A DNA stretch of 64,000 nucleotides from Pseudomonadota bacterium (GTDB lineage Bacteria > Pseudomonadota > Alphaproteobacteria > Sphingomonadales > Sphingomonadaceae), in contig JAZJXZ010000017.1 of assembly GCA_040390605.1 (NCBI GenBank), forward strand, positions 34,948 to 98,947. The letters run 5' to 3'. Every line of letters begins with the position of its first letter. The first letter of the stretch is position 1. The translations under genes and the position numbers were made by a program. Positions 45,669 to 47,584 of the stretch are shown one piece after another. The notes beneath the pieces are model-generated. The model saw nothing but the letters and a program-made list of their open reading frames with translations, did no database searches and was not told the DNA's origin.

Positions 45669-46427
45669 TCAATTGTCCGCGCAGCTGAAACCCGCGATGA
45701 GACCCTCGGACACCCACTGCGCCAGATATTGCCCCGCTTGCCCGACGCCGCGCTCTTCGCCCAGCCTGTCGACGAGTCGCGAACACAGTCCTTCGAACGA
45801 GACGCCGGACCGGACGAGGAGCAGGCACATCAGTTCCTGCGCCTCCGCGGTGCGAAAGTGCGATATGTGCCCTCGCCGCCAGACGATAACGGGCAAACTT
45901 TCCTCGAGATACTCGACTGGCGGCGGGACGTCGCCCGCATCGATGGCCGACCAGAGCGCGGCGGCGTTGGTCCATAGCGGTCGATGATCGAACGTTGGCG
46001 GGAGGTGCAAAACCGCCTTTGCCCAGTCGATGTCGCCAAGCTGGTCCATGCCGAGCTCGGTCGCATCGGGGCCGACGAATGCCTCGCCCAGCGCGCATTC
46101 GATCCACGCGAGTTCACCGACCTCCGGATCATCCTCGAAGGCGCTCGACAACGTCGCCGGAAAATCGCGCGCATAGGCGTCGAGCGTCCAGCTGCTCGGC
46201 GGAACGCGGTCGATGTGCGTGACGAGCGACTGCAGAAAGAGATCGCCCCCGAGCCACGCGCGGGTATGGGGAAAGGCTTCGTCGAGGCACGCAATAAGCT
46301 GCGCGCGATAGTTGTTCATATAGACATCGAGTCCTGCGGCGGCGCTCTCGCCGATCCGCCGGGCCGCCGACCGGTCCTCGTGGACCAGCCAGGCGCGGAC
46401 GTCGCGTTGCAGCGCCAGCAGGCTCAT
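45669..46427 (-). CDS. bufC: DUF2063 protein (BufC-type), second copy
   Basis: MSLLALQRDVRAWL...GLDVYMNNYRAQLIACLDEAFPHTRAWLGGDLF. ATGA overlap with the DUF692 stop. Confidence 0.8.
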   Translation of the reverse strand: MSLLALQRDVRAWLVHEDRSAARRIGESAAAGLDVYMNNYRAQLIACLDEAFPHTRAWLGGDLFLQSLVTHIDRVPPSSWTLDAYARDFPATLSSAFEDDPEVGELAWIECALGEAFVGPDATELGMDQLGDIDWAKAVLHLPPTFDHRPLWTNAAALWSAIDAGDVPPPVEYLEESLPVIVWRRGHISHFRTAEAQELMCLLLVRSGVSFEGLCSRLVDRLGEERGVGQAGQYLAQWVSEGLIAGFSCADN

Positions 46428-47254
46428 GCCGCCCTCTTCTCACCCGCACGCCCGATCCGCCGTGCGACGTCGAGTTCGGCGAGGAGGTCGGCGAGCGGCG
46501 GAATGTCGTCGTCGCGCTCGATCATCGTGGCGACCGGTCCGAGGCGTGGCAGCACATGGGCATAGAGATCCCACACCGATGCCGGAACCTCGCGATCGTG
46601 CGTATCGATCAGCAGGTGCTTGCCCGCGCTATGGCCGGCGAGGTGAATCTGGCGGACGCGGTCGTGCGGCAGGCCGTCCAGATAGGCGATCGCGTCGAAC
46701 CCGTGATTGGTCGCGCTGACGAAGACGTTGTTGACGTCGAGCAGCAGCCCGCAGCCTGTGCGTGCGCAGACCGCGTCGAGAAACTGCCACTCGGACATGT
46801 CGGCGGGCGCGAAGTCGATATAGCTGGAGGGGTTTTCGATCAGCATCTCGCGACGCAGCGCCTCCTGCGCCCGCGCGATATTGGCGCACACCACATCTAG
46901 CGCCTCGCGCGTGTAGGGCAGCGGCAGAAGATCGTGCGCGTTGAAGCCCTCGCTCCGGCTCCAGCTGAGATGATCAGAGACGAACAGCGGTTCGATCTCG
47001 TCGACCAGCGCGCGCAACCGCGCCAGATACGCCCCGTCCAATCCGTCGGCCGAGCCAAGCGACATCGAGACGCCGTGCAGCGCCACCGGATACCGCTGGC
47101 GCACATCGCGCAGAATCTGACGCGGTTTCCCGCCGTCGACCATGAAATTCTCGGAGATCACCTCGACGAAATCGACCGCCACACGGTGTTCGAGGAATTC
47201 CCGGTAGTGCGGCTTGCGAAGACCGAGCCCGAAGCCGGCAAAAGTAGCGCTCAT
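46424..47254 (-). CDS. bufB: DUF692 / MNIO family RiPP-modifying enzyme, second copy
   Basis: GFGLGLRKPHY...VDFVEVISENFM...VALHGVSMSLGS...LFVSDHLSW...IENPSSY...DVNNVFV...QIHLAGH. Confidence 0.85.
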   Translation of the reverse strand: MSATFAGFGLGLRKPHYREFLEHRVAVDFVEVISENFMVDGGKPRQILRDVRQRYPVALHGVSMSLGSADGLDGAYLARLRALVDEIEPLFVSDHLSWSRSEGFNAHDLLPLPYTREALDVVCANIARAQEALRREMLIENPSSYIDFAPADMSEWQFLDAVCARTGCGLLLDVNNVFVSATNHGFDAIAYLDGLPHDRVRQIHLAGHSAGKHLLIDTHDREVPASVWDLYAHVLPRLGPVATMIERDDDIPPLADLLAELDVARRIGRAGEKRAA

Positions 47255-47278
47255 GTCTGGCTTTTCCGAAAAGGGGGT

Positions 47279-47316
47279 GGGCCCGGCCGGTTGGGGGGGG
47301 GAGGGAGGCCGGGCCC
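47279..47316 (-). other. 10-bp perfect GC hairpin between precursor and enzyme genes
   Basis: GGGCCCGGCC (47279-88) pairs with GGCCGGGCCC (47307-16). The 18-nt loop contains a G9 run (47293-47301; C9 on the coding strand). Confidence 0.5.
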
Positions 47317-47323
47317 GAAGCGA

Positions 47324-47584
47324 TCAGTTCGGTGCGGTGGTGCTGCCGCCGGCGGCGGTGCAGGCCTTGAGCGCCATTTCCTTGAAGCCCTGACCCTTGC
47401 AGTCGTTCTGGCCCTTGCAATCATGGTTGCCCGACTTGCAGTCCGACTGGCCCTTGCAGCCGTTGACGCCGTAGCAATGGACCTTCGCCCCACCCTTGGC
47501 GACGGCCATGGTCGGGGCGACCGCGGTGATGGCGACAACGGCGGCGGCAGCGGCGAAGCTCACGCCGGTTCGGATCATGGTCAT
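47324..47584 (-). CDS. bufA: 6-Cys secreted precursor peptide (BufA2-type bufferin)
   Basis: [29 protein letters not shown] | [57 protein letters not shown]. AGGAG lies 6 nt upstream. Six Cys, including a CKGQ-type repeat. Confidence 0.8.
   Translation of the reverse strand: [86 protein letters not shown]

Follow-up and report, generated by a model that had tools for sequence, protein, structure and literature searches.

We analysed a 64,000-nucleotide (nt) stretch of DNA, hereafter the window, from a bacterium of the family Sphingomonadaceae (Pseudomonadota; NCBI GenBank assembly GCA_040390605.1, contig JAZJXZ010000017.1, positions 34,948 to 98,947 of the forward strand). At 45669-47584, its minus strand carries an operon of three genes: bufA2 (47324-47584) for a precursor peptide of 86 amino acids (aa), bufB2 (46424-47254) for a 276-aa maturase of the MNIO family (DUF692), and bufC2 (45669-46427) for a DUF2063-type partner protein of 252 aa. 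The genes of the sigma factor SigF and of NrsF, an anti-sigma factor, lie immediately upstream on the same strand. A preliminary description, made from the DNA letters alone, had put a three-gene MNIO operon at this position directly downstream of sigF-nrsF and had assigned it to the second (6/12-Cys) bufferin class, and our analysis bore this out. The locus is very probably a bufferin-2 (buf2ABC) gene cluster, whose peptide product would be made under SigF control and sequester copper.

The precursor and its enzymes

Family membership was checked with hidden Markov models. BufA2 scored 101.1 bits against the NCBIfam equivalog NF050166 ('BufA2 family periplasmic bufferin-type metallophore'; cut-off 60 bits) over residues 8-82, and a search of a 5.8-billion-protein collection (E<=0.001) returned 689 homologues; therefore bufA2 is not a chance open reading frame (ORF). 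Several homologues from Sphingomonas, Sphingobium and Phenylobacterium already carry the BufA2 name in NCBI or UniRef. The closest named relatives are Sphingomonas species, and an identical BufA2 with the same neighbours is encoded on a 1.36-Mb metagenome contig of the Joint Genome Institute (JGI). An AGGAG is positioned 6 nt upstream of the bufA2 ATG. Long ORFs on the plus strand (e.g. 46934-47602) run antisense to genes that match their families strongly, and we treated these ORFs as high-GC artefacts.

The N-terminus of BufA2 has the look of a Sec-type signal peptide (residues 1-29; 47498-47584), with Arg5, hydrophobic residues at 8-24, A-V-A at 27-29 (-3 to -1) and no lipobox, and this segment aligns among the relatives in an alignment of 30 sequences. 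The predicted cleavage after ...TMAVA (residue 29) leaves a core of 57 aa. This is the length given in the preliminary description, but the core starts with KGGAKVHC and not with VHC. The six Cys that had been counted in the precursor are residues 37, 43, 49, 56, 62 and 75, and the window BufA2 thus has the six-Cys core of the BUF_6/12Cys precursors. Of the repeat proposed earlier, C-K-[GS]-[QG]-x-x-D-C, the first part is present at Cys43, Cys49, Cys56 and Cys62, but x-x-D-C spans only the interval from Cys49 to Cys56 and the other two intervals have one x. None of the 30 aligned relatives departs from the six Cys or the C-K-G motifs.

BufB2 reached 384.8 bits with the NCBIfam model NF050167 MNIO_BufB ('MNIO family bufferin maturase'; cut-off 310) and 372.7 bits with PF05114 (MbnB_TglH_ChrH; cut-off 25, E=1e-111), and it stayed under the cut-offs of the HvfB, ApyH, MbnB and ChrH models. 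It aligns with PDB 3BWW (DUF692) and with MbnB structures (E ~1e-15), and the His/Asp/Glu motifs are kept. The motifs LHG, SDHLS, IENPS, LDVNN, IHLAGHS, DTHD and IERD, for which we took the iron-ligand roles from the literature, are identical or aligned in 3BWW and in BufB1, the second MNIO of the window.

The catalytic Asp of BufB2 is directly followed by another Asp (E246-R247-D248-D249). The same residue follows the catalytic ERD in 74 of 77 BufA2-linked MNIOs from related loci, whereas BufB1-type enzymes have G, D or R there, and the window BufB1 has Gly. According to Gadgil 2026, an Asp instead of Phe after the catalytic Asp marks MNIOs with Cys-Lys substrates, and BufA2 is a substrate of the Cys-Lys type. 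Judged by this residue, BufB2 carries the putative Cys-Lys specificity Asp and fits the Cys-Lys captophorin MNIO group.

BufC2 matched PF09836 (DUF2063) with 59 bits (cut-off 27.2) over residues 6-91. It shares 25% identity with the window BufC1 over residues 32-208, which is the sole and indirect hint of a putative C-terminal RRE-like domain, and BufB2 shares 45% identity with BufB1; this other enzyme pair is encoded at 36556-38119. The bufB2 stop and the bufC2 start overlap in an ATGA on the minus strand (46424-46427). The ATGA coupling that the preliminary description had noted applies to the MNIO and DUF2063 genes, but not to bufA2 and the MNIO gene, which are 69 nt apart and uncoupled.

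SigF-type promoters and the hairpin behind bufA2

The sigF gene (48306-48842, minus strand) encodes an extracytoplasmic function (ECF) sigma factor with Sigma70_r2 and r4_2 domains. Its longest ORF starts at GTG 48875; the call of 178 aa from ATG 48842 is that of the identical JGI contig. The nrsF gene (47665-48306, or to 48309, minus strand) encodes a membrane anti-sigma factor with 251 bits to PF06532 (NrsF), and its ATG shares 1 nt with the sigF stop. NrsF has Cys131 and Cys181; in Caulobacter NrsF, C131 and C181 are the two residues that were studied.

We searched the whole window for the SigF consensus GTAACC-N16-CGAA, which was experimentally derived by Kohler 2012 (PMC3511200), and found three exact matches (0.03 expected). 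The first (47626-47651, minus strand) is positioned in the 80-nt gap between nrsF and bufA2, with its 3' end 41 nt ahead of the bufA2 ATG. The second (48932-48957, plus strand) precedes a divergent bufA1-type gene. GTAACT-N16-CGAA, which differs by one mismatch, is a candidate SigF-type promoter of sigF-nrsF (48863-48888, minus strand). For comparison we took the 80 best-matching BufA2 loci in a genome collection, to which the counts of related loci refer. Of these, 57 have the exact motif in the 200 nt ahead of bufA2, at 38-62 nt before the gene, and many of the remaining loci have GTAACC-N16-CGTA. Since the exact motif is found in the nrsF-bufA2 gap, bufA2BC is predicted to be driven by its own SigF-type promoter, independently of read-through from nrsF. 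Scans of 44900-49400 for sigma-70 promoters and intrinsic terminators gave no match; the promoters in this region are of the ECF type, and its hairpin has no clear U-run. No known RNA family was detected by an Rfam scan of 43000-52500.

The third exact motif (51741-51766, minus strand) precedes a gene for a secreted YHS-like protein (51216-51707, minus strand; 21.6 bits, which is below the cut-off), and a gene for a TlpA/redoxin-like thioredoxin (50698-51219, minus strand) also follows behind this motif. Both genes probably belong to the SigF regulon as well. Proteins of the YHS and TlpA/redoxin types are often tied to copper.

The 69-nt spacer between bufA2 and bufB2 holds a GC-rich hairpin (47279-47316, minus strand) with a 10-bp stem, GGGCCCGGCC/GGCCGGGCCC, and an 18-nt loop. 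It starts 8 nt past the bufA2 stop and is followed by ...CTTTTC. Taken alone, the fold of the window hairpin is unremarkable (z -1.9). When 76 related bufA2-bufB spacers were compared with shuffles, they folded better than the shuffles; their median z was -2.5, and z was under -1.5 in 79% of them. The RNAalifold consensus hairpin has nine pairs, five of them with compensatory double changes, and a short T-run comes after many of the copies in the relatives. We propose that the hairpin acts as a leaky terminator, or as a 3'-stabilising stem, which would raise precursor mRNA over enzyme mRNA. A conserved hairpin after the precursor gene thus suggests how the precursor-to-enzyme ratio is set.

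One Sphingomonas metagenome-assembled genome (MAG) has a bufA2-bufB2 spacer of 204 nt (L001:6262-6468). On top of the usual hairpin, it contains a long near-perfect inverted repeat (minimum free energy -123 kcal/mol, z -11.6), which may be an inserted repeat element.

The seven-gene layout in sphingomonads

Divergently from sigF, the plus strand carries a gene for a BufA1-type (DUF2282) precursor of 92 aa with four Cys (49065-49343; PF10048, 85.4 bits) and doxX (49382-49858; PF07681, 60.5 bits), which encodes a BufD-like membrane protein. The likely doxX start is ATG 49400, and the identical JGI contig has a 152-aa gene call. This pair has no MNIO or DUF2063 gene of its own. The preliminary description had noted the lack of DoxX, which is right for the operon, but doxX is found about 1.8 kb away in this divergent SigF-type unit. 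A complete buf1ABCD operon was found by the window scan about 7 kb away (36089-38402, at its widest 36089-38441, minus strand), and its BufA1 shares 73% identity with the core of the orphan BufA1-type precursor. The window had been credited with two precursor-enzyme sets. There are indeed two enzyme pairs, but they go with three precursors, two of the BufA1 type and one BufA2.

No GTAACC-N16-CGAA motif was found upstream of buf1ABCD. The only candidate for a SigF promoter, a one-mismatch match about 490 nt upstream, is at chance level and was rejected. The buf1ABCD operon may be regulated otherwise than the SigF-linked cluster.

The window and nearly all of the 80 loci share the order bufA-bufB-bufC and lack doxX within the operon. 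In 46 of the 80, the complete arrangement is the one seen here, with doxX and bufA1 facing away from sigF, nrsF, bufA2, bufB and bufC. These seven-gene loci belong mostly to sphingomonads (Sphingomonas, Sphingobium and Novosphingobium); a small number come from gammaproteobacterial MAGs. In Luteibacter and Xanthomonas, nrsF and sigF are instead divergent from bufA1BCD-bufA2BC, and there are two enzyme pairs. It has been published that sigma/anti-sigma genes occur in Buf1 clusters and not in Buf2 clusters. In most of the best-matching BufA2 loci, sigF-nrsF is found right before bufA2BC, which qualifies this statement; the mismatch may come from the classification of mixed clusters.

Some relatives show variants of this layout. 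In a close relative with a BufA2 that is 80% identical, on a 3.8-Mb contig (L083:8898-11902), doxX and bufA1 diverge directly from bufA2, bufB and bufC, without sigF-nrsF between them and with no second MNIO within 10 kb. A Caulobacteraceae MAG has two tandem bufA2 genes before a single bufB-bufC pair (L024:5626-6273). In Novosphingobium sp. BL-52-GroH, the seven-gene cluster is located on a 500-kb plasmid (L062; NZ_CP171150.1, 197339-209524), therefore the cluster can be plasmid-borne. Downstream of bufC2, the minus strand at 43071-45634 carries genes for a secreted DUF302 protein (45005-45502), a YeeE/YedE-like sulfur-transport membrane protein (44061-45125) and a LysR regulator (43071-43979). 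We rejected these as operon members because of a 166-nt gap and because they are not conserved beside bufC2 in the relatives.

It is conceivable, although we regard it as doubtful, that the seven genes form one unit in which BufB2 and BufC2 mature two substrates, BufA2 and the adjacent BufA1-type precursor, and in which DoxX acts with the Buf1 product only. This would extend the bufferin-2 reading and does not exclude it. The layout in 46 of the 80 loci speaks for such a unit, and so do the loose SigF-type motifs, which are present in the nrsF-bufA2 gap, upstream of sigF and upstream of bufA1 in each of these 46 loci (46/46), i.e. on all three transcription units. In addition, a second MNIO is absent within 10 kb in two relatives, one of which is the locus without sigF-nrsF between the units. 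Moreover, the paper on the MNIO landscape reports precursors that have no MNIO gene beside them and MNIOs that may take several substrates; its supplements gave no match when searched for sphingomonad genome counts. On the other hand, the complete buf1ABCD about 7 kb away could mature the orphan BufA1, and Cys III of the orphan is followed by Ala and not by Lys. In 47 of 49 orphan BufA1, Cys II is followed by Lys (NDCKAG), which is similar to the C-K motifs of BufA2 and would suit the BufB2 Asp; in full clusters, 7 of 15 have this Lys. We considered it as an adaptation to BufB2, but sphingomonad BufA1 from full A1BCD clusters have a Lys after Cys II too, so that the comparison is confounded with phylogeny and was not counted.

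If the seven genes are one unit, which we put forward only tentatively, then in sphingomonads buf2 would be one half of a unit with three SigF promoters, a single BufB/BufC pair of the Cys-Lys type would serve two precursor classes, and DoxX would travel with BufA1. DoxX travelling with BufA1 and not with the enzymes would point to a role that is specific to Buf1 and follows export. As a conserved pair that lacks enzymes of its own, bufA1-doxX offers a natural test case for an MNIO/partner pair with two precursors and for the role of DoxX.

Proposed function and comparison with known systems

The function that we propose for the bufferin-2 cluster follows the Caulobacter model. The Caulobacter operons buf1ABCD and buf2ABC were characterised by Leprevost et al. 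(PNAS 2024; PMC11626156). There, the two operons are part of the SigF regulon; copper induces them, but Fe, Zn and Mn do not, and growth in copper is supported by buf2. Relative to the core peptide, the mass of mature Buf2 is lower by 18 Da, or by 16 Da once reduced. Cys I and Cys VI carry no modification and are probably linked in a disulfide, and the four central Cys lose 4.03 Da each. On the multi-metal binding suggested in the preliminary description, the passages of that paper on Buf2 contained no Cu:Buf2 stoichiometry. For Buf1, the modification needed BufB1 and BufC1, which also sufficed for it, and DoxX was dispensable; the BufA1 signal peptide drives Sec export. The assignment of the modification as 5-thiooxazole has since been confirmed via selective labelling.

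By analogy, metal or oxidant stress would make the membrane protein NrsF release SigF, which would start transcription at the motif in the nrsF-bufA2 gap. The hairpin after the bufA2 stop would probably terminate or stabilise some of the transcripts and thereby leave more precursor mRNA than enzyme mRNA. BufB2, an iron enzyme, would act in the cytoplasm together with BufC2 and turn Cys43, Cys49, Cys56 and Cys62, all of which precede a Lys, into 5-thiooxazoles, in a four-electron oxidation of each Cys. The multiple heterocycles that the preliminary description expected are thus what we infer for the window BufA2 as well. The peptide would then be exported by Sec, its signal peptide cut after Ala29 and a Cys37-Cys75 disulfide formed, and the 57-residue product would remain in the periplasm and sequester excess copper.

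Several points weigh against this proposal. Gene identities, family membership, the promoter motif, the hairpin, the Cys pattern and synteny come from the sequences themselves, but the modified Cys, their chemistry, export, copper binding and the inducing signal are all carried over from the Caulobacter model, and the Sec signal peptide with its cleavage after Ala29 is a call made by eye. The AlphaFold2 model of BufA2, built with the 30-sequence alignment, has a predicted local distance difference test (pLDDT) score of 57 and a predicted template modelling (pTM) score of 0.34. Because of these values it is unfit for a fold search or for judging disulfide and metal geometry, which leaves the presumed Cys37-Cys75 disulfide and the geometry of the metal site structurally unsupported. 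A search of PDB sequences with BufC2 gave no match even at E<=1. NrsF reached only 148 bits with the NCBIfam equivalog AntiSigF_NrsF (cut-off 300), therefore the NCBI pipeline would not name it by that model. The window hairpin, which lacks a clear U-run, also went unflagged by the terminator scan of 44900-49400.

The inducing signal deserves separate attention. The Caulobacter SigF/NrsF system responds to chromate, dichromate and cadmium, and that of Azospira is specific for reactive chlorine species (hypochlorite), so copper is not the sole possible inducer. The same genes and chemistry could then serve another metal, or the defence against oxidants or reactive chlorine under SigF. Deletions of DUF692 genes had no metal phenotype in the Caulobacter study of that response, and MerC-Buf2 fusions suggest other metals. 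We consider such a role unlikely, since Caulobacter bufA2 responds to Cu but to none of Fe, Zn and Mn, and buf2 helps the cells to grow in copper (PMC11626156). In addition, the third SigF motif of the window precedes the weakly YHS-like and the TlpA/redoxin-like genes.

It is very improbable that the cluster is a decaying or silent copy, with the precursor unmodified or the operon unexpressed. A related mmr cluster in Microbulbifer was indeed unexpressed under the tested conditions, but here all three ORFs are intact, and the Cys, catalytic motifs, promoter motif and hairpin are conserved across dozens of genomes. There is next to no chance that the older annotation holds (a DUF2282-like 'integral membrane protein', a DUF692 protein of undefined role, a DUF2063 'DNA-binding' regulator and no peptide modification), although Pfam still has 'Predicted integral membrane protein' and 'Putative DNA-binding domain' and JGI 'uncharacterized membrane protein', because it is already refuted for the paralogous Buf1 model system, where in vitro reconstitution and genetics (PMC11626156) show that the MNIO and DUF2063 proteins put the modifications in place, and the hydrophobic N-terminus is a Sec signal that is cleaved off.

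A bufferin-2 cluster therefore remains the preferred reading, and as such the window locus is a typical member of an experimentally understood family that is already covered by curated models. Bufferin-2 is a large, experimentally characterised family that NCBI names automatically, and the locus alone adds little to it. New here are the promoter motif, the conserved hairpin, the Cys-Lys Asp of BufB2 and the seven-gene layout.

The closest known system is buf2ABC of Caulobacter vibrioides (CCNA_03001-02999; CC2907-CC2905). It has the same order of precursor, MNIO and DUF2063 genes without doxX, a precursor with a six-Cys core, of the family named BUF_6/12Cys, and a SigF motif upstream of the precursor gene; its precursor has a Sec signal (PMC11626156), as is predicted for the window BufA2. 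The paralogues have diverged alike, with 45% identity between BufB2 and BufB1 here and 43% in Caulobacter, and 25% and 23% between BufC2 and BufC1. However, the core has 57 residues here and 61 in Caulobacter, and the window operon is known from its sequence. The position of sigF-nrsF also differs: in Caulobacter these genes stand beside buf1ABCD and buf2 is found elsewhere, whereas in the window they directly precede bufA2BC, with bufA1-doxX as the only divergent neighbour.

Bufferin 1 (buf1ABCD; DUF2282/BufA1), of which the window also has a copy, shares the enzyme family, the partner and the predicted Sec export, thiooxazole chemistry and SigF control. It differs in that BufA1 has four Cys, two of them modified, and in that its operon includes doxX. 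The window BufA2 was below the Pfam DUF2282 threshold in a local scan, and BLASTP found no significant similarity between BufA2 and the window BufA1b (E=0.68).

The EGKCG or Lys-Cys captophorins (oxazolin HvfA, fontiphorin, gonophorin and bulbicupramide) likewise combine an MNIO and a DUF2063-type partner with a Cys-rich, copper-binding precursor that often has a signal peptide and receives several 5-thiooxazoles. In contrast to BufA2, where Lys follows Cys (C-K-G), their repeat E-G-K-C-G has Lys before Cys, and their MNIOs have Phe at the position of the BufB2 Asp. BufB2 scored 255 against the HvfB model (cut-off 360). The methanobactin system MbnABC is similar in that an MNIO turns Cys of a ribosomal peptide into copper-binding groups. 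However, methanobactins have oxazolone-thioamide groups, leader peptides instead of Sec signals and MbnC as the partner, and they serve copper acquisition; BufB2 reached 73 against the MbnB model, which has a cut-off of 325.

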